From positions 372,001-436,000 of the forward strand of contig JASTWF010000339.1 of assembly GCA_030390025.1 (NCBI GenBank): a DNA stretch of 64,000 bases, read 5' to 3'. The translations under genes and the position numbers were made by a program. Positions 10,064 to 57,997 of the stretch are shown here, piece by piece (positions within the stretch are counted from its first letter, which is position 1; the number at the start of each line of letters is the position of its first letter). This DNA is from Squalus acanthias. Lineage: Eukaryota. The notes below the pieces were generated by a model that worked only from the letters and a program-made list of their open reading frames with translations, did not search any database and was not told the origin of the DNA.

Positions 10064-10912
10064 GCACCCCTTCCCCTTCGCCCGGCACCTTCCCGTGCAC
10101 GCGCAGGAGATGCAACACATGCCCTTACACCTCCCCTCTTCCCACTGTCCAGGGCCCCAAACACCCCTTCCAGGTGAAACAGCGATTTACTTGTACTTCC
10201 TGCAATTTAGTACACTGTATTCGCTGCTCACGATGTGGTCTCCTCTACATTGGGGAGACCAAACGCAGATTGGGTGACCGCTTTGCGGAACACCTCCGTT
10301 CAGTCCGTAAGGGGGACCCCGAGCTCCCGGTGGCCTGTCACTTTAATTCACCGCTTCACTCCCACTCTGACCTCACCGTCCTCGGCCTATTACACTGTTC
10401 CACGGAAGCGCAGCGTAAGCTCGAGGAACAGCACCTCATCTTTCGTTTAGGCACGCTACAGCCCTCTGGACTCAATATCGAGTTCAACAATTTTAGATCA
10501 TAACCTCAGCTCCAATCACATTTATATTTTATTTTTTCCATCCTTTTATTTGCCCCCCCCCACCTTTTTTTTCCTCCTAGAAGCTGGCAGCTGTCCTTCA
10601 TTCTGCCAGTGGATTTCACACTTCTTTCAGCCTTAATCTGTCACATTAACACCACCTCTAGCCTTGCATATCTCTTAATGTCTCTTAATGTCTCTTCATC
10701 TCCCCCTTTGTTCTTTTATCCCCTCCCCCTTTTCCCAGCTTTACTCTGGCCTTAAATCTATTTGATTTCCGGCTCTTCACAGTTCTGACGAAAGGTTATC
10801 GACCTGATACGTTAACTCTCTTTCTCTCTCCACAGATGCTGCCTGGCCTGCTGAGTTTTTCCAGCGTTTTCTGTTGTTATTTCAGATTTCCAGCATCCGC
10901 AGTATTTTGCTA
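10064..10912 (+). mobile_element. Penelope-like element (Neptune type) 3' fragment: Cys linker + GIY-YIG + pLTR
   Basis: CTRRRCNTC linker and NLVHCIRCSRCGLLYIGETKRRLGDRFAEH endonuclease. Pyrimidine-rich 3' UTR with a hammerhead-like motif. Confidence 0.85.
10781..10817 (+). ncRNA. Minimal hammerhead ribozyme, degenerate (GAAA>GAUA)
   Basis: agtt-CTGACGA-a-AGGT tatcg ACCT-GATA-cgtt-aact: stems I and II pair, with one core substitution. Confidence 0.65.
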
Positions 10913-11129
10913 TCGACTTGTTAACTTTGATTGACACCAACCTATTTAGCACCTCCTTTCTATCTATTTTTATCCGATCCAATTTCTCTACTCCCCCTCC
11001 TCTACTGCGACATTAACTTCATCCTCTTCTTTTGTGAAGACAGATGCAAATTACTCGTTCAGTACCTCAGCCACGCCCTCCGCCTCTGTACCTGACATTT
11101 GCCATAAACCTCCTTTTTCTGTTTTAGGT

Positions 11130-11672
11130 GGCTGAGGGATGAAGGAGGCGAGTGTGCAATGGAGATGGTAATGGGACAAGTTAAGAAACAAAAGATGACT
11201 CGAGATGGAAGGCAGGAGAGATTAAGAGACATTGAGAGATTAAGAGATGGTGCAAGGCAAAAGGAGATGGTAATGGGACAAGTTAACAAAAGATGGCTCT
11301 AGATGGAGTGTAAATGGCACTCCCATTACCATCTCTTTGCCTTGCACCATCTCTTAATCTCTCTTACACTCTCCTGCCTTCCATCCTATCACAGAGCTTC
11401 CCTTTTGTTCTTTCCTCCCCTCCCCCCTTTCCCTGCCCCAGCACTTTATTAGTTTATGGGATCTGGGTGTCGCTGGCAAAGCCAGCATTTATTGCCCAGC
11501 CTATGCCTTAAAACCTGTTCTATCTCCAGCTTTTTCCAGTTCTGACTAAGGGTCACAGACCTGAAACGTTAACTCTGTTTCTCTCTCCACCGATGCTGCC
11601 GGACCTGCTGAGTATTTCCAGCATTTTCTGTTTTTATTTCAGATTTCCAGCATCCGCAGTATTTTGCTTTTG
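11130..11672. mobile_element. Penelope-like 3' UTR/pLTR remnant in inverted arrangement
   Basis: 11236-11278 is an imperfect reverse complement of 11321-11361. The plus arm continues into the pLTR seen at 10780-10910 and 28290-28390. Confidence 0.65.
11538..11574 (+). ncRNA. Minimal hammerhead ribozyme, degenerate (CUGACGA>CUGACUA)
   Basis: agtt-CTGACTA-a-gGGTC aca GACCt-GAAA-cgtt-aact; core G8 is mutated. Confidence 0.6.
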
Positions 11673-13260: not shown

Positions 13261-13356
13261 TTATCTACACTCCTTTTACAGGGTTTCAGAAGTGGAGCAT
13301 TTACAGACAGGAAGCTCAGACCAGATCTGCCAGAGTCGCTCGATTCATCACCCTGA

Positions 13357-14656
<1,300 letters not shown>

Positions 14657-15115
14657 CTGGGGTGACCTGAACGTGGAATGGATGAATGTTTTATAAATTC
14701 TTGTACTGCTGTTTAATCTTTAAGACTGTTGTGCTGATGATTCCCTTTGTTTGATTGTTCATGGTGTTCCATAGAATGTACAGCACAGAAACAGTCCATT
14801 CGGCCCAACTGGTCCATGCCAGTGTTTATGCCCCACACCCACCCTACTTCAATTAACCCGATCAACATCTCCTCCCATTCCTTTCTCCCTCATGTGGCTT
14901 CCCCATAAATGTATCTGTGCTGTTCACCTCAACTACTCCTTGTGGTAGCGAGTTCCCCATTCTACCACTCGCTGGGTAAAGAAGTTTCTCCTGAATTACC
15001 GACTGGATTTATTAGTGACCATCTTATCATTATGGCCCCATAAATATGATGAGATTCTGTTAAGCTGACCAGTATGTTGTTGTACTTTGTCTTTTTCTGA
15101 TGAATGAAACATTAC

Positions 15116-15563
15116 TGAGCCCCTGTACCCGTGTTATGGGATGAAGTGCCAGACAAGTAAAGGCACAACGTCTGGGTGTGAATCTAATAATAACCTCACG
15201 GACCGTATAGGTGTGATAACCAGACGGGCTTGTGGTTATAGTCTGGTCACAGATGGACTAAATTCCCTGAATTAGCAGGAGTTCAGGAGGCGGTCAACAG
15301 ACGGGTCCAAACAATCCCATTTCCTGAGCGGTAACCAAGCTTGTGTATAAGAACAGGCCACTTAAGCCGTTGTCAGTTGGAACAGACTCGAGAAGATCGC
15401 GCGTGAATCCACTGTACTTCTATTCTCCAGATTGAGGGAATTATCACCCGATCTGTGTTATGCAGCGCTGTTAATAAAGCCTGGAGAGACAATTTGTGTT
15501 CTTGTGAGCTTGATTATCTGGTATCCGAAACCCTGGGACTCCCGATCATTAGAGTCAACCTCA
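15116..15563 (+). mobile_element. Possible solo LTR
   Basis: ~440 bp, TG...CA ends, TATAAG at ~15346 and AATAAA at ~15472. Copies at 26265-26573 (partial) and 30975-31425 (minus). No TSD found. Confidence 0.35.
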
Positions 15564-15755
15564 GTGTGTGGAAAGGGATTCCCTGGTGTCTCCCACCCGC
15601 TGACACACCAGAGTGTCCACATTGTGACTGCGGTGGGTCGATTCCACTGTTTCTGATGCCTTTAATCACATCCAGGACTGAACCATGTTAATTCAGGCAA
15701 CTGGGGCTTGCGAATGTTAAGAGCCCCCAATAACTGGGCTGGATTTAAAGATTAT
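15561..15755 (+). pseudogene. Orphan terminal zinc finger + ZNF 3' UTR
   Basis: SVCGKGFPGVSHPLTHQSVH, then taatcacatccaggactgaaccatg...aactgggctgga as in the ZNF 3' UTRs at 61300-61430 and 62855-62910 (minus). Confidence 0.6.
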
Positions 15756-15796
15756 TCCCTGTTCTCTCAGTACTAGTGAGCAGAGAGAAGCTGATG

Positions 15797-16190
15797 TTAG
15801 AGAATCATAGAGCACAGTAGGATGCCTTTCGGCCCATCGTGCTGGTGCCGGCTCTCTGAAAGAGCGATGCAATTAGTCCCACTGCCCTGCTCTTTCCCCA
15901 CAGCCCTGCAAATTTCTGCTTCTAGTATATATCCAATTCCCTTTTGAAAGTTACTATTGAATCTGCTTCCACCTCCCATTCAGGCAGTGCATTCCAGATC
16001 ATCACAATTCGCTGTGTAAAAAAAATCTCCTCATTTCCTCTCTAGATTCTTTCACCAATGATCTGAAATCTGTGTCCTCTCGTTACCGACCCTCCTGCCA
16101 GTGACAACAGCTTCTCCTTGTTTGCTCGATCAAAACCCCTCATAATTTTGAGCCCCTCGATCACATCTCCACTTAACCGTCTCTGCTCCA
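15797..16190 (-). mobile_element. CR1 3' end
   Basis: CR1 ORF2 C-terminus and tail on the minus strand; mirrored at 30345-30742. Confidence 0.8.
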
Positions 16191-16200
16191 AGTTATATTG

Positions 16201-16410
16201 AGAGGTCGCACAACACCAGGTTATAGTCCAACAGTTTTATTTTAAATCACAAGCTTTCGGAGCTATCGCTCCTTCCTCACTTCACCTGAGGAAGGAGCGA
16301 TAGCTCCGAAAGCTTGTGATTTCAAATAAAACTGTTGGACTATAACCTGGTGTTGTGCGACCTCTCAATTTTGTCCACCCCAGTCCAACACCGGCATCTC
16401 CGCATCATGA
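16201..16410. mobile_element. Non-autonomous Penelope-derived mini-element: inverted pLTR pair, 13-bp TSD
   Basis: Arms 16197-16279 and 16287-16369 are near-perfect inverted repeats of the pLTR at 44948-45040. TSD ccaagttatattg at 16188-16200 and 16411-16423. Empty site at 30338-30350 (minus). Confidence 0.9.
16282..16319 (+). ncRNA. Minimal type I hammerhead ribozyme, intact core
   Basis: tcac-CTGAGGA-a-GGAGC gata GCTCC-GAAA-gctt-gtga: stem I tcac/gtga, 5-bp stem II, palindromic AGCT stem III. Confidence 0.8.
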
Positions 16411-16629
16411 CCAAGTTATATTGCCATTGTTTTGTGAATTGTTGCTGTGATCGAGGTGCTGGATGTCCGTGCCTGGGGAATGGGACATTCTATCCTCGTG
16501 AGCACCGAGTGTCAGCATCCAGCAATCTCTGGTCAGGGACTGTCTTTTTAAACTGCCTCACCTGAGGTTTTTCACTCCCTGATTTCATTAGTAAACATTT
16601 CAGAGTTTTTGCAGAGTGACCAAGGCTGA

Positions 16630-17441
16630 ACAGATAAATGTGAGGTATTACATTTTGGTAGGAAGAATGGGGAGGTCACTATCACTTGGAGGGTGTGAGT
16701 CTAGGTGGGGTAGAGGAACAAAGGGATCTCGGAGTACAAATACACAAATCACTAAAAGTTGCGACACAGGTTAGCAAGGCCATAGAAAAAGCAAACCAAA
16801 CACTAGGGTTTATTTCTAGAGGTATAGAATTGAAAAGTAGTGAAGTTATGCTAAACCTGTATCGAACCTTGGTTAGACCACACTTAGAGTACTGCGTGCA
16901 GTTCTGGTCGCCATATTATAAAAAGGATATAGAGGCCCTGGAGAGGGTGCAGAGAAGATTTACAAGGATGATACCAGAAATGCGAGGGTATACATATCAG
17001 GAAAGGATGAACAGGCTGGGTCTCTTTTCTCTTGAAAAAAGAAGGCTGAGGGGTGATCTAATAGTGATCTTTAAAATTACGAAAAATGTTGATAGAGTGG
17101 ATAGAGAGAAATGTTTCCACTTGTGGGGAAGAGCATAACTAGAGGCCATCAATATAAGATAGTCACCAAGAAATCCAATCTGGAATTCAGAAGAAACTTC
17201 TTTACCCAAAGATTGGTGAGAATGTGGAATTCGCTACCACAGGGAGTGGTTGAAGCGAATAGTATCGAAGCATTTAAGGGGAGGCTAGACAAGCATATGA
17301 GGGAGAAGGGAATAGAGGATTATGCTGATAGATTTAGATGAGGAAAGACTGGAGGAGGCTCGAGTGGAGCATAAACACCGGCATGGACTGGTTGGGCCGA
17401 ATGGCCTGTTTCTGTGCCGTATATCCTGTGTAATCCTGTGT
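16630..17441 (+). mobile_element. CR1 LINE 3' part
   Basis: RDLGVQIHKSLK...RPHLEYCVQFWSP...RNFFTQR plus tail; mirrored at 29320-30135. Confidence 0.9.
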
Positions 17442-17473
17442 CAAGTATCCCAGCTGGCTTAGCTCCAGGCACT

Positions 17474-17930
17474 TTAGCTCAGTGGGCAGCACTCTCACCT
17501 CTGAGTCAGAAGGTCATGGGTTCAAGTCCCAGTCCAGAGACTTGAGTGTAAAAATCTAGGTTGACACTCCAGTACTGAGAGAGTGCTGCACTGTCAGAGG
17601 TGCCGTCTTTCGGATGAGATGTTAAACCGAGGCCCCCGTCTGCTCTTTCAGGTGGACGTAAAAGATCCCATGGCACTACATTGAAGAAGCGCAGGGGAGT
17701 TCTCCCCGCTGTCCTGGGGTCAATATTTATCCCTCAATCAACATCACTGAAATAGATTATCTGGTCATTGTCACATTGCTGTTTGTGGGAGCTTGCTGTG
17801 CGCCAATTGGCTGCCGCGTTTCCTACATTACAACAGTGACTACACTTCAGAAGTTCTTCATTGGCAGTAAAGCGCTTTGGGACGCGCTGAGGTTGTGAAA
17901 GGCGCTATATAAATGCAAGTCTTTCTTTCT
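17474..17930 (+). mobile_element. tRNA-headed Deu/Nin-domain SINE (SacSINE1/AmnSINE1-like)
   Basis: A box tagctcagtggg, B box ggttcaagtccc, central gtctttcggatgagatgttaaaccgagg...gtaaaagatcccatggcac domain (recognised from memory), and an L2-like tail ending (cttt)n. Confidence 0.75.
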
Positions 17931-18229
17931 CAGCAAGAGGGCGAGTGTCAGTGGTTGGAGGGAGGAGCTCAGTGTTGTCACTGGGTGGACACAGACAGAT
18001 TGAAGCTGAAAGACAGAGAATGCTGAAGTTTGGAATGATAGCACCCAAAGTCAGGAGACGATCCCTTTGTCTCGATAAGGGAGGTGGTTGCTAAGAGACC
18101 CTCAGACCTAATAACACTGCAAACTGCTCAGGCAGCAGACTTGTTGCAACATGTGAGGTCACGAGTGAGTTGGTGCACAGACAACAGAGCCTTGCGCATT
18201 CCTGAGAGACACAAACTGGTTCTGTAGCC

Positions 18230-28035: not shown

Positions 28036-28291
28036 TTCTTTATATATTTTAATTTTTTTCTCTGTTTTCTCACATGGTAGCTGTTAATGTTGCTGCCATC
28101 ATTATTCACATCTCATCTCGAGCCATCATTTGTTTCTTAACTTGTCCCATTACCTCTCCTTTTGCCTCGCACCATCATCCCTTTTGTCAGTCAATCTCTC
28201 CTGCCTTCCATCCTATCACAGACCTTCCCTTTATTCTTTCCTCCCCTCCTCCCTGCCCCTGCTTAAAAATCTCTCTTCTCTAACCTTTTCC

Positions 28292-28328
28292 AGTTCTGAC
28301 GAAGGGTCCTCGACCCGAAACGTTGACT
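28292..28328 (+). ncRNA. Minimal hammerhead ribozyme, intact core
   Basis: agtt-CTGACGA-a-GGGTC ctc GACCC-GAAA-cgtt-gact: stem I with one G-U pair, palindromic ACGT stem III. Confidence 0.75.
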
Positions 28329-28829
28329 CTGTTTCTCTCTCCTCGATGCTGCCTGACCTGCTGAGTGTTTCCAGCATTTTCTGTTGGTATTTCTGTCTTG
28401 ATACTATTCGGCTGCCTGGGGCTGCACGTAGGCCGCTCTGTTCTTATCCACTAATCATTGATCATCCCATCCCCAAGCTGACTCTGTGTGAACACCTCAG
28501 ACGAGCCTGAACCTGTTCTCCCGGTTACAGAACCAGTTTGTGTCTCTCAGGAATGCCCAAGGCTCTGTTGTCTGTGCACCAACCCACTCATTACCTCACA
28601 TGTTGCAACAAGTCTGCTGCCTGAGCAGTTTGCAGTGTTATTAGGTCTGTAGGTCTGTGGGTCTCTTATCAACCAACTCCATTATCTAGACAAAGGGCCC
28701 ATCTCCTGACTTTGGGTGTTATCATTCCAAACTTCAGCATTCTCTGTCTTTTAGCTTCAATCTGTCTGTGTCCACCCAGTGACAACACTGAGCTCCTCCC
28801 TCCAACCACTAACACTCGCCCACTTGCTG

Positions 28830-29287
28830 AGAAAGAAAGACTTGCATTTATATAGCGCCTTTCACAACATCAGGATGACCCAGAGTGCTTTACAGCCAAT
28901 GAAGAACTTCTGAACTGTAGTCACTGTTGTAATGTAGGAAACGCAGCAGCCAATTGGTGCACAGCAAGCTTCCAAAAACAGCAATGTGACAATGACAAGA
29001 TAATCTATTTCAGTGATGTTGATTGAGGGATAAATATTGACCCCAGGACACCGGGGAGAACTCCCCTGCTCTTCTTCAATGTAGTGCCATGGGATCTTTT
29101 ACGTCCACCTGAAAGAGCAGACGGGGGCCTCGGTTTAACATCTCATCCGAAAGACGGCACCTCTGACAGCGCAGCACTCTCTCAGTACTGGAGTGTCAAC
29201 CTAGATTTTTATGCTCAAGTCTCTGGACTGGGACTTGAACCCACGACCTTCTGACTCAGAGGTGAGAGTGCTGCCCACTGAGCTAAA
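28830..29287 (-). mobile_element. Deu/Nin-domain SINE (paralog of 17474-17930)
   Basis: Reverse complement of the SINE at 17474. Confidence 0.75.
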
Positions 29288-29319
29288 GTGCCTGGAGCTA
29301 AGCCAGCTGGGATACTTGA

Positions 29320-30135
29320 CACAGGATTACACAGGATATACGGCACAGAAACAGGCCATTCGGCCCAACCAGTCCATGCCGGTGTTTATGCTCCACTCGA
29401 GCCTCCTCCCGTCTTTCCTCATCTAAATCTATCAGCATAACCCTCTATTCCCTTCTCCCTCATATGCTTGTCTAGCCTCCCCTTAAATGCATCGATACTA
29501 TTCGCTTCAACCACTCCCTGTGGTAGCGAGTTCCACATTCTCACCACTCTTTGGGTAAAGAAGTTTCTTCTGAATTCCCGATTGGATTTCTTGGTGACTA
29601 TCTTATATTGATGGCCTCTAGTTATGCTCTTCCCCACAAGTGGACACATTCTCTCTGTATCCACTCTATCAAAATGTTTCATAATTTTAAAGACCTCTAT
29701 TAGGTCACCCCTCAGCCTTCTTTTTTCAAGAGAAAAGAGACCCAGCCTGTTCATCCTTTCCTGATATGTATACCTTCGCATTTCTGGTATCATCCTTGTA
29801 AATCTTCTCTGCACCCTCTCCAGTGCCTCTATATCCTTTTTATAATATGGCGACCAGAACTGTACGCAGTACTCTAAGTGTGGTCTAACCAAGGTTCGAT
29901 ACAGGTTTAGCATAACTTCACTACTTTTCAATTCTATACCTCTAGAAATAAACCCTAGTGCTTGGTTTGCTTTTTTTATGGCCTTGCTAACCTGTGTCGC
30001 AACTTTTAGTAATTTGTGATTTGTACTCCGAGATCCCTTTGCTCCTCTACCCCACCTAGACTCGCACCCTCCAAGTGATAAGTGACCTCCCCATTCTTCC
30101 TACCAAAATGTAATACCTCACATTTATCTGTTCAA
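29320..30135 (-). mobile_element. CR1 3' part (paralog of 16630-17441)
   Basis: 170-aa CR1 ORF2 C-terminal ORF at 29419-29931. Confidence 0.9.
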
Positions 30136-31885
30136 CCTTGGTCACTCTGCAAAAACTCTGAAATGTTTAATAATGAAATCAGGGAGTGAAAAACCTCAGG
30201 TGAGGCAGTTTAAAAAGACAGTCCCTGACCAGAGATTGCTGGATGCTGACACTCGGTGCTCACGAGGATAGAATGTCCCATTCCCCAGGCACGGACATCC
30301 AGCACCTCGATCACAGCAACAATTCACAAAACAATGGCAATATAACTTGGAGCAGAGACGGTTAAGTGGAGATGTGACAGAGGTGCTCAAAATTATGAGG
30401 GGTTTTGATCGAGCAAACAAGGAGAAGCTGTTGTCACTGGCAGGAGGGTCGGTAACGAGAGGACACAGATTTCAGATCATTGGTGAAAGAATCTAGAGAG
30501 GAAATGAGGAGATTTTTTTTACACAGCGAATTGTGATGATCTGGAATGCACTGCCTGAATGGGAGGTGGAAGCAGATTCAATAGTAACTTTCAAAAGGGA
30601 ATTGGATATATACTAGAAGCAGAAATTTGCAGGGCTGTGGGGAAAGAGCAGGGCAGTGGGACTAATTGCATCGCTCTTTCAGAGAGCCGGCACCAGCACG
30701 ATGGGCCGAAAGGCATCCTACTGTGCTCTATGATTCTCTAACATCAGCTTCTCTCTGCTCACTAGTACTGAGAGAACAGGGAATAATCTTTAAATCCAGC
30801 CCAGTTATTGGGGGCTCTTAACATTAACAAGCCCCAGTTGCCTGAATTAACATGGTTCAGTCCTGGATGTGATTAAAGGCATCAGAAACAGTGGAATCGA
30901 CCCACCGCAGTCACAATGTGGACACTCTGGTGTGTCAGCGGGTGGGATACACCAGGGAATCCCTTTCCACACACTGAGGTTGACTCTAATGATCGGGAGT
31001 ACTAGGGTTTCGGATACCAGATAATCAAGCTCACAAGAACACAGATTGTCTCTCCAGGCTTTATTAAGAGCGCTGCATAACACAGATCGGGTGATAATTC
31101 CCTCAATCTGGAGAATAGAAGTACAGTGGATTCACGCGCGATCTTCTCGAGTCTGTTCCAACTGACAACGGCTTAAGTGGCCTGTTCTTATACACAAGCT
31201 TGGTTACCGCTCAGGAAATGGGATTGTTTGGACCCGTCTGTTGACCGTCTCCTGAACTCCTGCTAATTCAGGGAATTTAGTCCATCTGTGACCAGACTAT
31301 AACCACAAGCCCGTCTGGTTATCACACCTATACGGTCCGTGAGGTTATTATTAGATTCACACCCAGACGTTGTGCCTTTACTTGTCTGGCACTTCATCCC
31401 ATAACACGGGTACAGGGGCTCAGTAATGTTTCATTCATCAGAAAAAGACAAAGTACAACAACATACTGGTCAGCTTAACAGAATCTCATCATATTTATGG
31501 GGCCATAAATATAAATCCAGCAGGGAATTCAGGAGAAATGTCTTTACCCAGCGAGTGGTAGAATGGGGAACTCGCTACCACAAGGAGTAGTTGAGGTGAA
31601 CAGCACAGATACATTTATGGGGAAGCCACATGAGGGAGAAAGGAATGGGAGGAGATGTTGATCGGGTTAATTGAAGTAGGGTGGGTGTGGGGCATAAACA
31701 CTGGCATGGACCAGTTGGGCCGAATGGCCTGTTTCTGTGCTGTACATTCTATGTAACACCATGAACAGTCAAACAAAGGGAATCATCAGCACAACAGTCT
31801 TAAAGATTAAACAGCAGTACAAGAATTTCTAAAACATTCATCCATTCCATGTTCATGTCGCCCCAGCTGTCTGCAGGGCCCTGCG

Positions 31886-32878: not shown

Positions 32879-33264
32879 GGGGCCGGGGATTCTCCTCAGT
32901 GTGTAGCCACTGGTGTCGCTTCAGGTTCTTGTAGATTTTGAAGCTCTTTCAGAACATTTAGAAGGTCTGTCATCAGTGTGAACTCACTGGGGTGCCAGCA
33001 GATTGGAGGAGCGACTGAATCAGGTCCTGATGAATCGCGTAACTCTGTCAGATCTTGACGTGATATTTGGTTTGAGCTTCCTGTCTGTAAATGCTCCACT
33101 TCTAAAACCCTGTAAAAGGAGTGCAGAAAGGGTAAGGAGGGAGCAGGAATTTTTTTGGCTTTTTTTCCCTCAAAGAACAAACAGGGTCGAGCCGGTCCCA
33201 ATGGTGTCCAGCCATGCCCACAATAACCAGCGGGCCAGAAACAGCCCAATCCACCTCACTGACT

Positions 33265-44947: not shown

Positions 44948-47171
44948 AATTGAGAGGTCGCACAACACCAGGTTATAGTCCAACAGTTTTAATTGAAATC
45001 ACAAGCTTTCGGAGCTATCGATTGCTCCTTCCTCAGGTGAAGTAAATTAGATACAGAATTGCCAAAGCATATATAGATAGAAAACAAAGCATGTGTACCT
45101 TACAATTGCAGACCACTAAATTAAATCATCCTGACTATCTGCCGAGGTGTGATAAAGTTAATTAAGTCAGCCAGGAAGGTACCACATCAAAGACATAGCA
45201 AGATACAACTGAGACAATGAGGTGTAGTCGCAGGGGTTCTAATGTGTCAAAAGCTGCCGTCTGTATGTAAAACGAAAAGCTTTAAAATTTTTACTTTTTT
45301 ACTGGGAAAATTTTTACTTTTTTACTGGGAATCACATCTGTGAACAAGCTAACGACGACTCGAGTCCGGATCACGTCATGTATCGTGACATCAACCCAAG
45401 ATCCCGATTGAGACCGTCTTCATGAGTGCGGAACTTGGCTATCAGTTTCTGCTCGATGATTTTGCGTTGTCGTGTGTTTCTAAGGTTGCCTTGGAGAACG
45501 CTTACCCGCAGATCCGAGGCTGAATGTCCTTGACTGCTGAAGTGTTCCCCGACTGGGAGGTAACAATCCTGCCTGGCGATTGTTGCGCGGTGCTCATTCA
45601 TACGTTGTTTCAGTGTCTGCATGGTCTCGCCGATATACCATGCCGCGGTGCATTCTTTCCTGCAACGTATGAGGTAGACAACGTTGGCCGAGTCACATGA
45701 GTATGTACCATGTACCTGGTGGGTAGTGTCCTCACGTGTGATGGTGGTATCTGTGTTGATGATCTGGCATGTCTTGCAGAGTTTGCCATGGCAGGGTTGT
45801 GTGGTGTCGTGGTCGCTGTTATCCTGAAAGCTGGGTAATTTGCTGCAAACGATGGTACTTCTGAGGTTAGGCGGCTGTTTGAAGGCAAGTAGTGGAGGCG
45901 TGGGGATGGCCTTAGCGAGGTGTTTGTCGTCATCGATGACATGTTGAAGGCTGCGAAGAACATGGCGTAGTTTCATCGCTCCGGGGAAGTACTGGACGAC
46001 GTAGGGTACCCTGTTGGTTGTGTCCCGTGTTTGCCTTCTGAGGAGGTCTATGCGATTTTTCGCTGTGGCCCGTCGGAACTGTCGATCGATGAGTCGAGCG
46101 TCATATCCCGTTCTTACGAGGGCGTTTTTCAGCGTCCGTAGGTGTCCATCGCGTTCCTCCTCGTCTGAGCAGATCCTGTGTATTCGCAGGGCTTGTCCAT
46201 AGGGGATGGCTTCCTTAACATGGTTAGGGTGGAAGCTGGAGAAGTGGAGCATCGTGAGGTTGTCCGTGGGCTTGCGGTAGAGTGAAGTGCTGAGGTGTCC
46301 GTCTTTGATGGAGATTCGTGTGTCCAGGAATGAGACCGATTCTGAGGAGTAGTCCATGGTGAGTTTGATGGTGGGATGGAACTTGTTTATGTTATCGTGT
46401 AGTCTTTTCAGTGATCCTTCGCCATGGGTCCAAAGGAAGAAAATGTCGTCGATGTATCTGGTGTACAGCGTTGGCTGGAGGTCCTGTGCAGCGAAGAAGT
46501 CTTGCTCGAACTTGTGCATGAAGATGTTGGCGTATTGGGGTGCGAATTTGGTCCCCATGGCTGTTCCGTGTGTTTGGGTAAAAAAATGGTTGTCGAAGGT
46601 GAAGACATTGTGGTCAAGGATGAAGCGGATGAGTTGTAAGATGGCGTCTGGAGATTGGCTGTTGTTGATGTTGAGTACTGAGGCTGTTGCAGCGATGCCG
46701 TCATCGGGGGGATACTGGTGTAGAGTGCCGATACGTCCATCGTGGCAAGAAGTGTTCCTGGTTCAACTGGTCCGTGGGTGCTGAGTTTCTGTAAGAAGTC
46801 TGTAGTGTCGCGACAGAAGCTGGGGGTTCCCTGTACGATGGGTTTCAGAATGCCCTCGACGTATCCAGAGAGGTTCTCACACAGGGTTCCATTGCCTGAT
46901 ACGATAGGACGTCCGGGTGTGTTGGCTTTGTGTATCTTTGGGAGGCAGTAGAAGTCTCCCACGCGGGGAGTACGTGGGATGAGAGCGCGTAGGATGTTTT
47001 GAAGGTCTGGATCGAAGGTCTTGATCAGTCTATTGAGTTGGCGGGTGTGTTCTTTGGTCGGATCTGCGGGTAGCTGTCTGTAGTGTTCCTGGTTGTCCAG
47101 TTGTCGGTATGCTTCTTTACAATAGTCCGTTCTGTTCTGTATGACGATGGCTCCTCCTTTGTCCGCTGGTT
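44948..47171 (-). mobile_element. Penelope-like element (Neptune type) copy 1, 5'-truncated, 1-bp frameshift
   Basis: RT (KPADKGG, LPKIHK, GTAMG, RYIDD), CHGKLCKTC linker, GIY-YIG (NVVYLIRC...YIGET). TSD tttgatgg. Confidence 0.95.
44999..45040 (-). ncRNA. Minimal hammerhead ribozyme in pLTR, copy 1
   Basis: Minus strand tcac-CTGAGGA-a-GGAGC aatcgata GCTCC-GAAA-gctt-gtga. Confidence 0.8.
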
Positions 47172-50043
47172 TTTGATGGGACAGTGTAGAGGGAGCTTAA
47201 CTCTGTATCTAAACCATGCTGTACCTGCCCTAGTAGTGTTTTATGAGATAGTGTAAAGGTAGCTTTACTCTGTATGTAACTGCGCTGTACCTTGCCTGGA
47301 AGTGTTTGATGGTACCGTGTAGAGGGAGCTTTCCTCTGTATCTCACCTGTGCTGCACCTGCCCTGGGAGTGTTTGATGGGACAGTGTAGAGGGAGCTTTA
47401 CTCTGTATCTAACCAGTGCTGTACCTGCCCTGGGAGTGTTTGATGGGACAGTGGAGAGGGAGCTTTACTCTGTATCTAACACGTCCTGTACCTGCCCTGT
47501 GAGTGTTTGATGGGACAGTGTAGTGGGAGCTGTACTCTGTATCCAATCCGTGCTGTACCAGCCCCGGGAGTGTTTGATGGGACAGTGTAGTGGGAGCTTT
47601 ACTCTGTATCTAACCCGTGCTGTACCTTCCCGGGGTTTGATGGGAGATTGTGTAAAGGGAGCTTCACTCTGTATGTAACCCGCGCTGTACCTTCCCTGGG
47701 AGTGTTTGATGGGACAGTGTAGAGGGAGCTTTACTCTGTATCTGACCCGTGCTGTACCTGCCCTGGGAGTGTTTGATGGGACAGTGCAGAGGGAGCTTTA
47801 CTCTGTATCTAACCCGTGCTGTACCTTGCCTTGGACTGTTTGATGGGACGGTGTAGAGGGAGCTTTACTCTGTATCTAACCAGCGCTGTACCTGCCCTGG
47901 GAGTGTTTGATGGGACAGTGTAGAGGGAGCTTTACTCTGTATCTAACCAGTGATGTACCTGCCCTGGCAGTGTTTGATGGGACAGTGTGGAGGGAGCTTT
48001 ACTCTGTATCTAACCAGTGCTGTACCTGCCCTGGGAGTGTTTGATGGGACAGTGTAGTGGGAGCTTTACTCTGTATCTAACCCGTGCTGTACCTTCCCGG
48101 GGAGTGTTTGATGGGAGATTGTGTAGAGGGAGCTTTACTCTGTGTCTAACCCGTGCTGTACCTGCCCTGGGAGTTTTTGATGGGACAGTATAGAGCCAGC
48201 TTTACTCTGTATCTAACCCATGCAGGACCTGCCCTGCGAGTGTTTGATGGGACAGTATAGAGGGAGCTTTACTCTGTACCTAAGCCATGCTGTACATGCC
48301 CTAGGAGTGTTTGATGGGATAGTGTAAAGGGACCTTCACTCTGTATGTAACCCGCACTGTACCTTCCCTGGGAGTGTTTGATGGGACAGTGTAGAGGGAG
48401 CTTTACTCTGTATCTAACCCGTGCTGTACCTTCCCTGGGAGTGTTTGATGGGACAGTGTAGAGGGAGCTTTACTCTGTATTTAACCCGTGCTGTACCTGC
48501 CCTGGGATTGTTTGATGGGACAGTGTGGAGGGAGGTTTACTCTGTATCTAAACCATGCTGTACCTGCCCTAGTAGTGTTTTATGAGATAGTGTAAAGGTA
48601 GCTTTACTCTGTATCTAACCCGTGCTGTACCTTGCCTGGGAGTGTTTGATGGGACCATGTAGAGGGAGCTTTACTCTGTATCTAACACGTACTGTACCTG
48701 CCCTGGGAGTTTTTGATGCAACAGTGTAGAGGGAGCTTTACTCTGTATCTAACCAGTGATGTACCTGCCCTGGCAGTGTTTGATGGGACAGTGTGGAGGG
48801 AGCTTTACTCTGTATCTAACCAGTGCTGTACCTGCCCTGGGAGTGTTTGATGGGACAGTGTAGAGGGAGCTTTACTCTGTATATAACCCGTGCTATACCT
48901 GCTCCAGGAGTGTTTGATTGCACAGTGTAGAGCGAGCTTTACTCTGTATCTAACCCGTGCTGTACCTGCCCTGGGAGTGTTTGATGGGACAGTGTAGAGG
49001 GAGCTTTCCTCTGTATCTAACCAGTGCTGTACCTGCTCTGCGAGAGTTTGATGGGACAGTGCAGAGGGGGTTTTACTCTGTATCTACCCCGTGCTGTACC
49101 TGCCCGGGGAGTGTTTGATGGGACAGTATAGAGCGAGTTTTACTATGTATCTACCCCGTGCTGTACCTGCCCTGGGAGTGTTTGATGGGATCTTGTCGAT
49201 GGAGTTTTACTCTGTATCTAACCTGTGCTGTACCTGCCCTGGGAGTGTTTGATGGGAGAATGTAGAGGGAGTTTTACTCTGTATCTAACCAGTGTTGTAC
49301 CTGCCCTCTGAATGTTTGATGGGGCAGTGTAGTGGGAGCTTTACTCTGTATCTAACCTGTGCTGTACCTGCTCTGGGAGAGTTTGATGGGACAGTGCAGA
49401 GGGAGTTTTACTCTGTATCTAACCCATGCTTTTCCTGCCCTTGGAGTGTTTGATGGGATTGTGTCGATGGAGCTTTACTCTGTATCTAAGCTGTGCTGTA
49501 CCTGCTCTGGGAGAGTTTGATGGGACAGTGCAGAGGGAGTTTTACTCTGTATCTAACCCATGCTTTTCCTGCCCTTGGAGTGTTTGATGGGACAGTGTAG
49601 AGAGAGCTTTACTCTGTATCTAACCTATGCTGTACCTGCCCTGTGAGTGTTTGATGGGACAGTGCAGAGGGAGCTTTAAATCGGTATCTAACCCGTGCTG
49701 TCCCTGCCCTGGGAGTGTTTGATGGGACAGTGTAGAGGGAGCTTTACTCTGTATCTAACCCGTGCTGTACCTATCCTGGGAGTGTTTGATGGGACAGTGT
49801 AAAGGGAGCTTTACTCTGTATGTATCCCACGCTGTTCCTTCCCTGGGAGTGTTTGCTGGGACAGTGTAGAGGGTGCTTTGCTCTATATCTCAACCATGCT
49901 GTACCTACCCTAGTAGTGTTTTATGAGATAGTGTAAAGGTAGCTTTACTCTGTATGCAACTGCGCTGTACCTTGCCTGGGAGTGTTTGATGGAATTGAGA
50001 GGTCGCACAACACCAGGTTATAGTCCAACAGTTTTAATTGAAA

Positions 50044-50085
50044 TCACAAGCTTTCGGAGCTATCGATTGCTCCTTCCTCAGGTGA
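50044..50085 (-). ncRNA. Minimal hammerhead ribozyme in pLTR, copy 2
   Basis: Identical to 44999-45040. Confidence 0.8.
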
Positions 50086-50415
50086 AGTAAATTAGATACA
50101 GAATTGCCAAAGCATATATAGATAGAAAACAAAGCATGTGTACCTTCCAATTGCAGACCACTAAATTAAATCATCCTGACTATCTGCCGAGGTGTGATAA
50201 AGTTAATTAAGTCAGCCAGGAAGGTACCACATCAAAGACATAGCAAGATACAACTGAGACAATGAGGTGTAGTCGCAGGGGTTCTAACGTGTCAAAAGCT
50301 GCCGTCTGTATGTAAAACGAAAAGCTTTAAAATTTTTACTTTTTTACTGGGAAAATTTTTACTTTTTTACTGGGAATCACATCTGTGAACAAGCTAACGA
50401 CGACTCGAGTCCGGA

Positions 50416-52215
50416 TCACGTCATGTATCGTGACATCAACCCAAGATCCCGATTGAGACCGTCTTCATGAGTGCGGAACTTGGCTATCAGTTTCTGCTCG
50501 ATGATTTTGCGTTGTCGTGTGTTTCTAAGGTTGCCTTGGAGAACGCTTACCCGCAGATCCGAGGCTGAATGTCCTTGACTGCTGAAGTGTTCCCCGACTG
50601 GGAGGTAACAATCCTGCCTGGCGATTGTTGCGCGGTGCTCGTTCATACGTTGTTTCAGTGTCTGCATGGTCTCGCCGATGTACCATGCCGCGGTGCATTC
50701 TTTCCTGCAACGTATGAGGTAGACAACGTTGGCCGAGTCACATGAGTATGTACCATGTACCTGGTGGGTAGTGTCCTCACGTGTGATGGTGGTATCTGTG
50801 TTGATGATCTGGCATGTCTTGCAGAGTTTGCCATGGCAGGGTTGTGTGGTGTCGTGGTCGCTGTTATCCTGAAAGCTGGGTAATTTGCTGCGAACGATGG
50901 TACTTCTGAGGTTAGGCGGCTGTTTGAAGGCAAGTAGTGGAGGCGTGGGGATGGCCTTAGCGAGGTGTTTGTCGTCATCGATGACATGTTGAAGGCTGCG
51001 AAGAACATGGCGTAGTTTCATCGCTCCGGGGAAGTACTGGACGACGTAGGGTACCCTGTTGGTTGTGTCCCGTGTTTGCCTTCTGAGGAGGTCTATGCGA
51101 TTTTTCGCTGTGGCCCGTCGGAACTGTCGATCGATGAGTCGAGCGTCATATCCCGTTCTTACGAGGGCGTTTTTCAGCGTCCGTAGGTGTCCATCGCGTT
51201 CCTCCTCGTCTGAGCAGATCCTGTGTATTCGCAGGGCTTGTCCATAGGGGATGGCTTCTTTAACATGGTTAGGGTGGAAGCTGGAGAAGTGGAGCATCGT
51301 GAGGTTGTCCGTGGGCTTGCGGTAGAGTGAAGTGCTGAGGTGTCCGTCTTTGATGGAGATTCGTGTGTCCAGGAATGAGACCGATTCTGAGGAGTAGTCC
51401 ATGGTGAGTTTGATGGTGGGATGGAACTTGTTTATGTTATCGTGTAGTCTTTTCAGTGATCCTTCGCCATGGGTCCAAAGGAAGAAAATGTCGTCGATGT
51501 ATCTGGTGTACAGCGTTGGCTGGAGGTCCTGTGCAGCGAAGAAGTCTTGCTCGAACTTGTGCATGAAGATGTTGGCGTATTGGGGTGCGAATTTGGTCCC
51601 CATGGCTGTTCCGTGTGTTTGGGTAAAAAAATGGTTGTCGAAGGTGAAGACATTGTGGTCAAGGATGAAGCGGATGAGTTGTAGGATGGCGTCTGGAGAT
51701 TGGCTGTTGTTGATGTTGAGTACTGAGGCTGTTGCAGCGATGCCGTCATCGTGGGGGATACTGGTGTAGAGTGCCGATACGTCCATCGTGGCAAGGAGTG
51801 TTCCTGGTTCAACTGGTCCGTGGGTGCTGAGTTTCTGTAAGAAGTCTGTAGTGTCGCGACAGAAGCTGGGGGTTCCCTGTACGATGGGTTTCAGAATGCC
51901 CTCGACGTATCCAGAGAGGTTCTCACACAGGGTTCCATTGCCTGATACGATAGGACGTCCGGGTGTGTTGGCTTTGTGTATCTTTGGGAGGCAGTAGAAG
52001 TCTCCCACGCGGGGAGTACGTGGGATGAGAGCGCGTAGGATGTTTTGAAGGTCTGGATCGAAGGTCTTGATCAGTCTATTGAGTTGGCGGGTGTGTTCTT
52101 TGGTCGGATCTGCGGGTAGCTGTCTGTAGTGTTCCTGGTTGTCCAGTTGTCGGTATGCTTCTTTACAATAGTCCGTTCTGTTCTGTATGACGATGGCTCC
52201 TCCTTTGTCCGCTGG
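50416..52215 (-). CDS. Penelope-like RT + GIY-YIG endonuclease ORF (N-terminally truncated, ~600 codons)
   Basis: The 530-aa track ORF extends upstream without stops (PADKGGAIVIQNRTDYCKEAYRQL...) to the satellite junction. No native start codon. Confidence 0.85.
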   Translation of the reverse strand, partial: PADKGGAIVIQNRTDYCKEAYRQLDNQEHYRQLPADPTKEHTRQLNRLIKTFDPDLQNILRALIPRTPRVGDFYCLPKIHKANTPGRPIVSGNGTLCENLSGYVEGILKPIVQGTPSFCRDTTDFLQKLSTHGPVEPGTLLATMDVSALYTSIPHDDGIAATASVLNINNSQSPDAILQLIRFILDHNVFTFDNHFFTQTHGTAMGTKFAPQYANIFMHKFEQDFFAAQDLQPTLYTRYIDDIFFLWTHGEGSLKRLHDNINKFHPTIKLTMDYSSESVSFLDTRISIKDGHLSTSLYRKPTDNLTMLHFSSFHPNHVKEAIPYGQALRIHRICSDEEERDGHLRTLKNALVRTGYDARLIDRQFRRATAKNRIDLLRRQTRDTTNRVPYVVQYFPGAMKLRHVLRSLQHVIDDDKHLAKAIPTPPLLAFKQPPNLRSTIVRSKLPSFQDNSDHDTTQPCHGKLCKTCQIINTDTTITREDTTHQVHGTYSCDSANVVYLIRCRKECTAAWYIGETMQTLKQRMNEHRATIARQDCYLPVGEHFSSQGHSASDLRVSVLQGNLRNTRQRKIIEQKLIAKFRTHEDGLNRDLGLMSRYMT

Positions 52216-55200
52216 TTTTTGATGGGACAGTGTAGAGGGAGCTTAACTCTGTATCTAAACCATGCTGTACCTGCCCTAGTAGTGTTTTATGAGATAGTGT
52301 AAAGGTAGCTTTACTCTGTATGTAACTGCGCTGTACCTTGCCTGGAAGTGTTTGATGGTACCGTGTAGAGGGAGCTTTCCTCTGTATCTCACCTGTGCTG
52401 CACCTGCCCTGGGAGTGTTTGATGGGACAGTGTAGAGGGAGCTTTACTCTGTATCTAACCAGTGCTGTACCTGCCCTGGGAGTGTTTGATGGGACAGTGG
52501 AGAGGGAGCTTTACTCTGTATCTAACACGTCCTGTACCTGCCCTGTGAGTGTTTGATGGGACAGTGTAGTGGGAGCTGTACTCTGTATCCAATCCGTGCT
52601 GTACCAGCCCCGGGAGAGTTTGATGGGACAGTGTAGTGGGAGCTTTACTCTATATCTAACCCGTGCTGTACCTTCCCGGGGAGTGTTTGATGGGAGATTG
52701 TGTAAAGGGAGCTTCACTCTGTATGTAACCCGCGCTGTACCTTCCCTGGGAGTGTTTGATGGGACAGTGTAGAGGGAGCTTTACTCTGTATCTGACCCGT
52801 GCTGTACCTGCCCTGGGAGTGTTTGATGGGACAGTGCAGAGGGAGCTTTACTCTGTATCTAACCCGTGCTGTACCTTGCCTTGGACTGTTTGATGGGACC
52901 GTGTAGAGGGAGCTTTACTCTGTATCTAACCAGTGCTGTACCTGCCCTGGGAGTGTTTGATGGGACAGTGTAGAGGGAGCTTTCCTCTGCATCTAACCAG
53001 TGCTGTACCTGCTCTGGGAGAGTTTGATGGGACAGTGCAGAGGGTGTTTTACTCTGTATCTACCCCGTGCTGTACCTGCCCGGGGAGTGTTTGATGGGAC
53101 AGTACAGAGCGAGTTTTACTATGTATCTACCCCGTGCTGTATCTGCCCTGGGAGTGTTTGATGGGATCTTGTCGATGGAGTTTTACTCTGTATCTAACCT
53201 GTGCTGTACCTGCCCTGGGAGTGTTTGATGGGGCAGTGCAGTGGGAGCTTTACTCTGTATCTAACCCGTGCTGTACCTGCCCTGGGAGTGATTGATGTGA
53301 CACTGCAGAGGTCGCTTTACTCTGTATCTAACCCTTGCTGTACCTGCCCTGGGAGTGTTTGATGGGACAGTGTCGAGGGAGCTTTAATCTGTATCTAACC
53401 TGTGCTGTACCTGCCCTGTGAGTGTGTGATGGGACAGTGTAGAGGGAGCTTTAATCGGTATCTAACCTGTGCTGTCCCTGTCCTGGGAGTGTTTGATAGG
53501 ACAGTGTGGAGGGAGCTTTACTCTGTATCTAACCCGTGCTGTACCTATCCTGGGAGTGAATGGTGGGACAATGTAGAGGGAGCTTTACTCTGTATCTAAC
53601 CCGTGCTGTACGTGCCCTAGGAGTGTTTGATGGGATAATGTCGAGGGAGCTTTACTCTGTATCTAACCCGTGCTGTACGTGCCCTAGGAGTGTTTGATGG
53701 GATAATGTCGAGGGAACTTTACTCTGTATCTAACCCATGCAGGACTTGCCCTGCAAGTGTTTGATGGGACAGTGTAGAGGGAGCTTTACTCTGTATCTAA
53801 ACCATGCTGTACCTGCCCTAGTAGTGTTTTATGAGATAGTGTAAAGGTAGCTTTACTTTGTATGCAACTGCGCTGTAGCTGCCCTGGGAGTTTTTGATGC
53901 AACAGTGTCGAGGAAGCTTTACTCTGTATCGAACCCGTGCTGTACCTGCCCTGGCAGTGTTTGATGGGACAGTGTAGAGGGAGCTTTTCTCTGTATCTAA
54001 CCCGTGCTGTACCTGCTCCAGGAGTGTTTGATTGCACAGTGTAGAGCGAGCTTTACTCTGTATTTAACCCGTGCTGTACCTGCCCTGGAAGTGTTTGATG
54101 GGACAGTGTAGAGGGAGCTGTACTCTGTATCCAATCCGTGCTGTACCAGCCCCGGGAGTGTTTGAAGGGATAGTATAGAGCGAGCTTTACTCTGTATCTA
54201 ACCCGTGCTGTACCTACCCTGGGAGTGTTTGGTGGGACAATGTAGAGCGAGCTTTACTCTGTATCTTACCCGTGCTGTACCTACCCTGGGAGTGTTTGAT
54301 GGGACAGTGTAGTGGGAGCTTTACTCGGCAACCCATGCTGTACCTTCCCGGGGACTGTTTGATGGGAGATTGTGTGGAGGGAGCTTTACTCTGTATCTAA
54401 CCCGTGCTGTCTTTACCCTGGGAGTGTTTGGTGGGACAATGTAGAGGGAGCTTTGCTCTGTATCTAAACCATGCTGCACGTGCCCTAGCAGTGTTTGATG
54501 GGATAATGTTTTTGGAGTTTTACTCTGTATCTAACCCATGCAGGACCTGCCCTGCGAGTGTTTGATGGGACAGTGTAGAGGGAGCTTTACTCTGTATCTA
54601 ACCAGTGCTGTACCTGCTCTGGGAGAGTTTGATGGGACAGTGCAGAGGGGGTTTTCCTCTGTATCTACCCCGTGCTGTACCTACTCTGGGAGTGTTTGAT
54701 GGGACAGTGTAGTGGGAGCTTTACTCGGCAACCCATGCTGTACCTTCCCGGGGACTGTTTGATGGGAGATTGTGTGGAGGGAGCTTTACTCTGTATCTAA
54801 CCCGTGCTGTCTTTACCCTGGGAGTGTTTGGTGGGACAATGTAGAGGGAGCTTTGCTCTGTATCTAAACCATGCTGCACGTGCCCTAGCAGTGTTTGATG
54901 GGATAATGTAGATGGAGTTTTACTCTGTATCTAACCCATGCTGTACCTGCCCTGCGAGTGTTTGATGGGACAGTGTAGAGGGAGCTTTACACTGTATCTA
55001 ACCAGTGCTGTACCTGCTCTGGGAGAGTTTGATGGGACAGTGCAGAGGGGGTTTTCCTCTGTATCTACCCCGTGCTGTACCTGCCTGGGGAGTGTTTGAT
55101 GGGACAGTATAGAGCAAGTTTTACTATGTATCTACCTCGTGCTGTACCTGCCCTGGGAGTGTTTGATGGGATCTTGTCGATGGAGTTTTACTCTGTATCT

Positions 55201-55773: not shown

Positions 55774-57997
55774 AATTGAGAGGTCGCACAACACCAGGTT
55801 ATAGTCCAACAGTTTTAATTGAAATCACAAGCTTTCGGAGCTATCGATTGCTCCTTCCTCAGGTGAAGTAAATTAGATACAGAATTGCCAAAGCATATAT
55901 AGATAGAAAACAAAGCATGTGTACCTTACAATTGCAGACCACTAAATTAAATCATCCTGACTATCTGCCGAGGTGTGATAAAGTTAATTAAGTCAGCCAG
56001 GAAGGTACCACATCAAAGACATAGCAAGATACAACTGAGACAATGAGGTGTAGTCGCAGGGGTTCTAACGTGTCAAAAGCTGCCGTCTGTATGTAAAACG
56101 AAAAGCTTTAAAATTTTTACTTTTTTACTGGGAAAATTTTTACTTTTTTACTGGGAATCACATCTGTGAACAAGCTAACGACGACTCGAGTCCGGATCAC
56201 GTCATGTATCGTGACATCAACCCAAGATCCCGATTGAGACCGTCTTCATGAGTGCGCAACTTGGCTATCAGTTTCTGCTCGATGATTTTGCGTTGTCGTG
56301 TGTTTCTAAGGTTGCCTTGGAGAACGCTTACCCGCAGATCCGAGGCTGAATGTCCTTGACTGCTGAAGTGTTCCCCGACTGGGTGGTAACAATCCTGCCT
56401 GGCGATTGTTGCGCGGTGCTCATTCATACGTTGTCTCAGTGTCTGCATGGTCTCGCCGATGTACCATGCCGCGGTGCATTCTTTCCTGCAACGTATGAGG
56501 TAGACAACGTTGGCCGAGTCACATGAGTATGTACCATGTACCTGGTGGGTAGTGTCCTCACGTGTGATGGTGGTATCTGTGTTGATGATCTGGCATGTCT
56601 TGCAGAGTTTGCCATGGCAGGGTTGTGTGGTGTCGTGGTCGCTGTTATCCTGAAAGCTGGGTAATTTGCTGCGAACGATGGTACTTCTGAGGTTAGGTGG
56701 CTGTTTGAAGGCAAGTAGTGGAGGCGTGGGGATGGCCTTAGCGAGGTGTTTGTCGTCATCGATGACATGTTGAAGGCTGCGAAGAACATGGCGTAGTTTC
56801 ATCGCTCCGGGGAAGTACTGGACGACGTAGGGTACCCTGTTGGTTGTGTCCCGTGTTTGCCTTCTGAGGAGGTCTATGCGATTTTTCGCTGTGGCCCGTC
56901 GGAACTGTCGATCGATGAGTCGAGCGTCATATCCCGTTCTTACGAGGGCGTTTTTCAGCGTCCGTAGGTGTCCATCGCGTTCCTCCTCGTCTGAGCAGAT
57001 CCTGTGTATTCGCAGGGCTTGTCCATAGGGGATGGCTTCTTTAACATGGTTAGGGTGGAAGCTGGAGAAGTGGAGCATCGTGAGGTTGTCCGTGGGCTTG
57101 CGGTAGAGTGAAGTGCTGAGGTGTCCGTCTTTGATGGAGATTCGTGTGTCCAGGAATGAGACCGATTCTGAGGAGTAGTCCATGGTGAGTTTGATGGTGG
57201 GATGGAACTTGTTTATGTTATCGTGCAGTCTTTTCAGTGATCCTTCGCCATGGGTCCAAAGGAAGAAAATGTCGTCGATGTATCTGGTGTACAGCGTTGG
57301 CTGGAGGTCCTGTGCAGCGAAGAAGTCTTGCTCGAACTTGTGCATGAAGATGTTGGCGTATTGGGGTGCGAATTTGGTCCCCATGGCTGTTCCGTGTGTT
57401 TGGGTAAAAAAATGGTTGTCGAAGGTGAAGACATTGTGGTCAAGGATGAAGCGGATGAGTTGTAGGATGGCGTCTGGAGATTGGCTGTTGTTGATGTTGA
57501 GTACTGAGGCTGTTGCAGCGATGCCGTCATCGGGGGGATACTGGTGTAGAGTGCCGATACGTCCATTGTGGCAAGAAGTGTTCCTGGTTCAACTGGTCCG
57601 TGGGTGCTGAGTTTCTGTAAGAAGTCTGTAGTGTCGCGACAGAAGCTGGGGGTTCCCTGTACGATGGGTTTCAGAATGCCCTCGACGTATCCAGAGAGGT
57701 TCTCACACAGGGTTCCATTGCCTGATACGATAGGACGTCCGGGTGTGTTGGCTTTGTGTATCTTTGGGAGGCAGTAGAAGTCTCCCACGCGGGGAGTACG
57801 TGGGATGAGAGCGCGTAGGATGTTTTGAAGGTCTGGATCGAAGGTCTTGATCAGTCTATTGAGTTGGCGGGTGTGTTCTTTGGTCGGATCTGCGGGTAGC
57901 TGTCTGTAGTGTTCCTGGTTGTCCAGTTGTCGGTATGCTTCTTTACAATAGTCCGTTCTGTTCTGTATGACGATGGCTCCTCCTTTGTCCGCTGGTT
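55774..57997 (-). mobile_element. Penelope-like element copy 3, same frameshift as copy 1
   Basis: Same junctions and TSD; tcatcggggggatac versus tcatcgtgggggatac in copy 2. Confidence 0.95.
55825..55866 (-). ncRNA. Minimal hammerhead ribozyme in pLTR, copy 3
   Basis: Identical to 44999-45040. Confidence 0.8.

Follow-up and report, generated by a model that had tools for sequence, protein, structure and literature searches.

Introduction

Insertions of Penelope-like elements (PLEs) in Adineta have been described as having an inverted pLTR, an optional tail of about 31 bp on one end and a TSD of 8-10 bp (PMC3846280). An inverted 5'-truncated copy and a tail of 30-40 bp are likewise presented as general PLE features in PMC8557442, and in PMC8969392 inverted pLTRs are handled as an ordinary quirk of individual copies. 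Mechanistic work on the origin of the head-to-head ends and of the optional tail is called for in PMC8557442, and for head-to-head palindromes self-priming on an antisense template has been proposed (Arkhipova et al. 2013, PMC3846280). For PAc, it is reported in PMC11167929 that the protein cuts and extends both target strands and prefers ATT, that the cDNA starts at two RNA sites bounding the tail, and that the hammerhead is dispensable; the extension of both strands was obtained in vitro, and the later steps are described there as unvalidated. As for the ribozymes, PLE minimal hammerheads are said in PMC4209133 to cleave poorly, even as dimers, cleavage by the PAc hammerhead needed the element's own protein (PMC11167929), and pairs of hammerheads on opposite strands, 100-700 bp apart, have already been noted in Schistosoma (PMC4209133). 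Retrozymes are built of head-to-tail tandem units with a hammerhead each, which are processed to circles (PMC7229834; bioRxiv 10.64898/2026.07.22.740005).

Here we analyse a short palindromic insert that is flanked by a direct repeat and lies in the window, by which we mean the whole stretch of 64,000 nucleotides of DNA that was examined. We conclude that it is very probably a young single insertion of an abundant shark PLE of Neptune/Nematis type, in an extremely 5'-truncated and inverted form.

Structure of the insert and its target site

The insert is made up of two pLTR arms of 83 nt each (16197-16279 and 16287-16369), which stand head-to-head and are complementary in 82 of 83 positions, the sole mismatch being the pair 16243/16323. 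Between the arms lies a 7-nt spacer (16280-16286) and 3' of the right arm a 41-nt tail (16370-16410), and the insert is flanked by a 13-mer (16188-16200 on the left, 16411-16423 on the right). A search of both strands of the window finds this 13-mer exactly once more, at an empty site on the minus strand (30338-30350). The features are the following.

16188..16200, plus strand: left TSD, 13 bp, the last 4 bases overlapping the outer end of the left arm
16197..16279, minus strand: inverted tail-less pLTR copy, its inner end cut within the hammerhead core (without C3 and without the 5' strand of stem I)
16280..16286, plus strand: spacer of 7 nt, which is parental and runs on collinearly into the right arm (5' strand of hammerhead stem I and C3); it overlaps the left arm by 1 nt, at 16279
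16287..16369, plus strand: direct pLTR arm, 94.8% identical over 96 columns (spacer included) to the 3' end of the satellite copies described below
16370..16410, plus strand: 41-nt tail, with a preferred family end at 16408/16409
16411..16423, plus strand: right TSD
30338..30350, minus strand: empty target inside the inverted paralogous block

Since positions 16197-16200 (4 nt) double as the outer end of the left arm, the length of the duplication is 9-13 bp, and the target sequence at the left-arm junction reads ATT. With the insert taken out, an alignment of the filled locus with the empty paralog over 1013 bases shows 13 mismatches and, in addition, 2 gap columns. The original prediction had described the same arms, spacer, tail and repeat, together with an uninterrupted target in the inverted paralog, and had taken the insert for a discrete insertion with a TSD that post-dates the duplication. 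The positions of this architecture were all recovered, the target is borne out by the 13-mer search and the alignment of the two loci, and the empty paralog and the flanking repeat support the discrete, later insertion; it is only the fixed repeat length of 13 bp that has to give way to the range of 9-13 bp, owing to the 4-nt overlap with the arm.

The two loci belong to an inverted duplication of a C2H2 zinc-finger gene block (13264-18229 and 28523-33127), and the insert sits 1.5 kb beyond the stop of the zinc-finger frame and also beyond an AATAAA at 15473. An inverted match of 27 nt and 78% between the flanks of the insert was judged to be due to chance.

Among 22 public runs, 17 contain at least half of 18 sampled words, with five organism labels and one unlabelled run, and the assembled contigs of four runs, namely X1, X2 and X7 (organism A) and X17 (organism E), were aligned on 16080-16540 at 85% likeness. 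The depths of the flank contigs of the zinc-finger block (1,799 in X1 and 437 in X2) suggest many more paralogs elsewhere. Precise deletion is common for long palindromes between short direct repeats, and this counts in favour of a history in which the insertion came before the duplication and the paralog later lost it precisely, the direct repeats having slipped against each other across the hairpin. By the depths just given the flank unit however appears to be multi-copy, and one gain being simpler than many losses, a gain is favoured over a deletion; furthermore the match of two X2 contigs breaks off at 16411 and leaves 8-9 letters unaccounted for, which is what an empty site should give. 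We therefore hold the deletion to be very unlikely.

The parent element

The stretch 16279-16370 matches the 3' end of three minus-strand elements that lie in a 67-bp satellite (94.8%, 96 columns).

44948..47171, minus strand: 5'-truncated PLE (RT, GIY-YIG, 3' UTR, hammerhead pLTR, tail-less) with an 8-bp TSD in the 67-bp satellite; 1-nt deletion in the RT region
49993..52217, minus strand: the same insertion in a second copy amplified with the satellite; open frame of 608 codons (P0001) that lacks the N-terminus
55774..57997, minus strand: third copy amplified with the satellite; RT region with a deletion of 1 nt

Because both junctions are common to the three ORF-bearing copies and their sequences are nearly identical, they represent one amplified 5'-truncated insertion, and to judge from these sequences they are neither three insertions nor a complete source element. 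The amplification unit around them is a higher-order unit of the 67-bp satellite of 5.0-5.8 kb, which occurs three times (44948-57997). The pLTR of the satellite copies ends, without a tail, one base outside the end of the left arm (equivalent to 16370).

The protein P0001 has an RVT_1 domain, the motifs DKG and YIDD, a GIY-YIG-like core that contains two cysteines and, at residue 469, a CX4CX2C linker between the RT and the endonuclease. A linker of the form CX2-5CxxC is the criterion for Neptune and Nematis in PMC8557442, and going by this linker motif alone the parent should therefore be a Neptune or Nematis element and not a Poseidon element. The closest named relatives of P0001 are found in the sharks Heptranchias perlo (91-92% protein identity) and Scyliorhinus torazame (86%), followed by Mustelus asterias (82%) and Chiloscyllium punctatum (81%). 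The insert is itself non-coding, and its place among the EN+ PLEs follows from the match of its right arm to an element encoding a PLE-type RT together with a GIY-YIG at the C-terminus; the insertion features of that group, namely 5' truncation, an inverted pLTR, an optional tail and a TSD of variable length, are likewise present. Furthermore, the insert and the satellite copies both have the alleles 16362C and 16368A, which are in the minority in X1 and X2 (the other letters make up 70-75% of the depth), and they therefore form one subfamily. The Penelope-like origin that had been predicted is thus supported by the right-arm match to the RT/GIY-YIG-encoding satellite copies, and the shared alleles uphold the predicted kinship with these copies, although their pLTR end, which had been given as identical to that of the left arm, turns out to lie one base further out.

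Inverted repeats and a TSD are also what a MITE-like DNA transposon with terminal inverted repeats would have. The repeats are however the 3' end of an RT-encoding element, the right one is not terminal since the 41-nt tail follows it, and the TSD measures 9-13 bp against the 8 bp of the parent. The homology to the PLE pLTR already refutes such a transposon, and the probability that we leave to it is practically negligible.

A second, older PLE family is found at 11128-11669, where inverted pieces of 3' UTR (11135-11305) adjoin a stretch in sense orientation that comprises 3' UTR, hammerhead pLTR and tail (11321-11668); the centre of this inverted structure lies near 11313 and it has no clear TSD. 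The copies of this family at 10780-10911, 11535-11668 and 28291-28393 have the same hammerhead architecture with compensatory changes, and two of them are tailed and one is tail-less, which repeats the pattern of the optional tail. A pattern search for the pLTR gave 0 loci in viral contigs, 0 in prokaryote genomes and 2 in metagenomes, both of a related and non-identical PLE family. The two metagenome contigs, L001 and L002, show 45-52% protein identity to P0001 and a nearly identical hammerhead core, and they are probably animal DNA in environmental samples.

The hammerhead and the hairpin

The ribozyme motif begins within the spacer and ends within the right arm.

16282..16319, plus strand: minimal type I hammerhead; stem I has 4 bp and stem II 5 bp, the core begins at 16286, an additional A stands at 16293, stem III is palindromic and the cut is predicted after 16315

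Stem I is formed by 16282-16285 and 16316-16319, and a palindromic AGCU takes the place of stem III. The motif is complete on the plus strand only, the minus copy having G at C3 and being without the 5' strand of stem I. By core motif and pairing, the pLTR carries the minimal type I hammerhead of the EN+ PLEs. In this structure 49 of 49 cells are paired and 6 of 9 pairs have changes on both sides, in a set of 6 sequences from about 3 families (the insert, the parent, L002 and three second-family copies from the window) that are few and related and for which the structure was defined from the insert.

In a plus-strand transcript the left arm precedes the right arm and complements the hammerhead core. 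The hairpin of the insert is computed at -147.1 kcal/mol (z -25.6), and 0 of 200 shuffles were equally stable. Forcing the hammerhead fold has a computed cost of +44.3 kcal/mol in a transcript that stops 10 nt beyond the point of cleavage and of just +1.5 to +1.7 kcal/mol without the left arm. The complete hammerhead is therefore predicted to be sequestered by the left arm within the hairpin. The intact plus-strand hammerhead of the original prediction stands as far as the sequence is concerned, while its folding within the insert is computed at +50.8 kcal/mol relative to the hairpin. Rfam gave 0 matches in the window at the gathering score, and at E<=10 over the insert 11 weak matches, none of them to a hammerhead; the best were to microRNA models, far below the cut-offs, and reflect the hairpin only. 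No sharp depth step was readable at the cut site at the 16-nt bin resolution, and the lack of cover over the right flank (16432-16540) in X7, an RNA run by guess, has no bearing on transcription either way. Since PLE minimal hammerheads cleave poorly or need the protein of the element, an in vitro cleavage assay would be weak.

A stem formed between the tail and the 3' part of the pLTR is found, with differing sequence, in three families (16333-16341/16382-16390; L002 1391-1457; 10834-10907). Its folding z-scores are weak (-0.6 to -2.1), and as modelled the stem, which encloses the proximal terminus, may be a protein-binding or start-site element. The tail ends at an ATG (16407-16409), and L002 likewise ends at an ATG (1468-1470) in the aligned place. 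Beyond the ATG the loose-end consensus of X1 reads as an alanine codon (agreement 0.37) and a 71%-identical relative starts with M-A, which weakly suggests that the distal terminus may coincide with the start codon of the ORF. A translated tail upstream of the start codon was looked for among 121 stored proteins, none of which was relevant.

Abundance of the family and variability of the inversion centre

In X1, X2 and X17 the depth summed over the arms goes up to 4-5 million, where most single contigs listed have a depth of about 10-70, and the PLE family is therefore very abundant, even though depth is not copy number. The share of sampled words is 0.94 in X1 and 0.78-0.83 in X2-X5, but with 18 words of unknown classes these values are uninformative on the presence of the insertion in a second individual. 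Among the 24 loose-end rows listed of 721, the element is left in X1 by 66 contigs behind 16408 and by 56 behind 16409, and since they diverge there into mutually unlike sequence (agreement 0.38 and 0.37), the end of the tail is a terminus of the family. Upstream of 16279, 27 contigs of X2 run on into a 3' UTR like that of the parent, and the spacer is thus parental sequence.

Joints between left-arm and right-arm pieces show 15 distinct centres among the 15 listed of 109 (6 seen in X1, 2 in X2, 0 in X7 and 10 in X17), and with 12 listed of 86 further rows the number of distinct centres rises to 23, several of them with filler letters. The sides of the listed joints are short (18-28 nt, below the caution level of 30 nt). 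Their summed depths are 108-642, compared with 1e6 on the arms, and among those listed no centre dominates; since these depths exceed those of the low-depth contigs, each joint may represent several copies. L001 and L002, which are 99.6% identical over 677 nt of the 3' region, have an inversion junction each, and at different points. The other copies of the family thus have variable inversion centres. One joint, 16232>16311 with a 2-nt overlap, occurs in X1 and X2 (organism A) as well as in X17 (organism E) and points either to an insertion that is old and shared or to a site at which joining has recurred. That 16320 turns up repeatedly among the joint ends of X17 was not read as a hot spot, as it coincides with a 1-nt insertion of the subfamily at 16319.

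The centre of the insert itself is collinear with the reference and therefore cannot appear as a joint. Pieces spanning it with 31 nt on each side numbered 0 among the 32 listed of 34,189, and the bin over the centre holds 5.5% of the peak depth in X1, 7.1% in X2, 1.1% in X7 and 0.12% in X17, which is an upper bound since parental contigs are included. A left-arm variant, 16270 T>C, has a total depth of 297k in X1 and 453k in X2, where it lies at most 32 letters from a contig end, and the contigs behind it could include some that cross the centre. The first two bin values, read as upper bounds, would allow for many copies of a non-autonomous palindromic subfamily with a fixed centre, whose transcripts the PLE protein would mobilise anew in trans, in a retrozyme-like manner, and it accords with such a subfamily that some other centres look multi-copy, that one recurs in two organisms and that pLTRs suffice for trans mobilisation in Adineta (PMC3846280). 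Parental-type contigs with their start at 16279-16280 however cover the bin too (they make up 4 of the 32 listed pieces, and X2 has 27 such loose ends), the bound falls steeply in X7 and X17, and none of the listed centres dominates. Multi-copy centres are furthermore also to be expected from segmental or satellite amplification, of which the window has two cases, and the hammerhead is masked by the hairpin, as is the greater part of the pLTR. A fixed-centre subfamily is thus improbable, and we find it just as doubtful that the palindrome is a member of a non-coding PLE derivative that propagates itself, a retro-MITE in which a tailed hairpin RNA with a fixed centre and its own hammerhead switched off would be recognised and copied by a Neptune-type protein and would seed small RNAs against the parent family throughout the shark genome.

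Of the two alternatives that had been predicted, an extreme truncation and inversion product and a retrozyme-like family, the second was to be given up should the inversion points differ between copies. Differing points are largely what is found, with the centre of the insert itself outside the joint count. The first alternative is accordingly in agreement with the structure, the TSD and the many differing centres, and there is no support for the second, since the unit is head-to-head, its one complete hammerhead is predicted to be sequestered and the centres of other copies differ.

Route of origin

Our confidence that the insert arose by two-ended priming is about evenly balanced. The GIY-YIG endonuclease would make a staggered cut, 9-13 bp apart, that leaves two target 3' ends. 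The bottom strand would then prime at the distal RNA start site and yield the tail and the right arm, and the top strand, ending in ATTG, would pair with CAAU (4 nt) at the proximal site and yield the tail-less left arm. Both cDNAs would stop early, after about 130 nt on the tail side and 80 nt on the other, and would meet and be end-joined with a 1-nt overlap, for which reason the inversion centre would be set anew in each event. The hammerhead would be a passenger within the pLTR, masked by the hairpin, and this copy of the insert is probably inert. Priming at the proximal site is supported by the end of the left arm, which lies at most 1 nt from the 3' end of the tail-less parent, and priming at the distal site by the right end of the insert, which coincides with the family terminus at 16408/16409. 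The analogy with PAc is limited by the fact that PAc is a Poseidon element and hence of a clade different from the Neptune/Nematis parent.

The same element could also have produced the insert by another route, in which the tail-first target-primed cDNA folds back at the centre, copies the inverted arm and joins via the 4-nt match, or in which self-priming takes place on an antisense template. The arms, identical in 82 of 83 positions and alike in the minority alleles 16362C/16368A, are what one template is expected to give, and self-priming is a published proposal for head-to-head palindromes (PMC3846280). Given the upstream sequence of the subfamily, only 1 nt could however pair at the fold-back point, and it further speaks against fold-back that the inverted arm ends at most 1 nt from the normal terminus, that filler letters occur at several centres and that PAc extends both strands in vitro (PMC11167929). 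We regard fold-back as a tentative possibility, and one insertion cannot separate it from two-ended priming. The arm mismatch 16243/16323 was considered as a sign of two templates and dropped, since allele frequency is unsafe for contigs that fit in two places.

Significance and comparison with known systems

The layout of the insert is an already-described PLE insertion structure in its smallest version, and as a single locus the insert is ordinary, one stump among very many PLE ends. It is also a clean specimen, with an empty site, two readable junctions and near-identical arms, in a genome with many young palindromes, and counting alleles and ends in an assembly could separate two-ended priming from fold-back. 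In Drosophila, siRNAs match inverted regions of Penelope (PMC3681739). By analogy, small RNAs from the hairpin of the insert against the parent family are plausible, and long hairpins in such abundance could also supply small RNAs that silence the family, much like the inverted copies of Penelope in Drosophila (PMC3681739). No description of such shark palindromes was found in the literature searched, although Repbase-type entries or supplementary tables may list them.

Like the non-LTR retrozymes described in PMC7229834 and bioRxiv 10.64898/2026.07.22.740005, the insert is non-coding and short, has a type I hammerhead and derives from a PLE pLTR. Unlike them it consists of just one unit, which is head-to-head and has only one hammerhead, a masked one: there is no tandem array at the insert, the minus copy is without C3, and the hammerhead does not fold readily by computation (+50.8 and +44.3 kcal/mol). 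Since the unit is not tandem and the hammerhead fold is costly relative to the hairpin, the insert is not a retrozyme. Hammerheads on opposite strands are a point in common with Schistosoma, but in the insert the two copies abut, the core of one is cut short and the other, which is complete, pairs with its complement. With the metazoan PLE hammerheads of PMC4209133 it shares the 4-bp stem I, the extra nucleotide between 9 and 10.1, the G10.1-C11.1 pair and the tiny palindromic stem III, which implies activity as a dimer.

The resemblance to PAc, the Poseidon element of Anolis carolinensis, lies in the two RNA start points bounding the tail, the AT-rich/ATT target and the pLTR hammerhead (PMC11167929), whereas the parent of the insert has the CX4CX2C linker of Neptune/Nematis. 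Furthermore, PAc starts within the ORF, one start lying 111-118 nt in (PMC11167929), while the tail of the insert may, as weakly suggested above, end at the start codon. The insert differs from Pen2a_Av of Adineta vaga in its shark-type host genome and in that its direct copy is cut down inside the pLTR, so that no ORF is left between the ends, but it agrees with that element, as described in PMC3846280 and PMC8557442, in the head-to-head pLTRs, the optional tail on one end, the short TSD and the shorter inverted copy.
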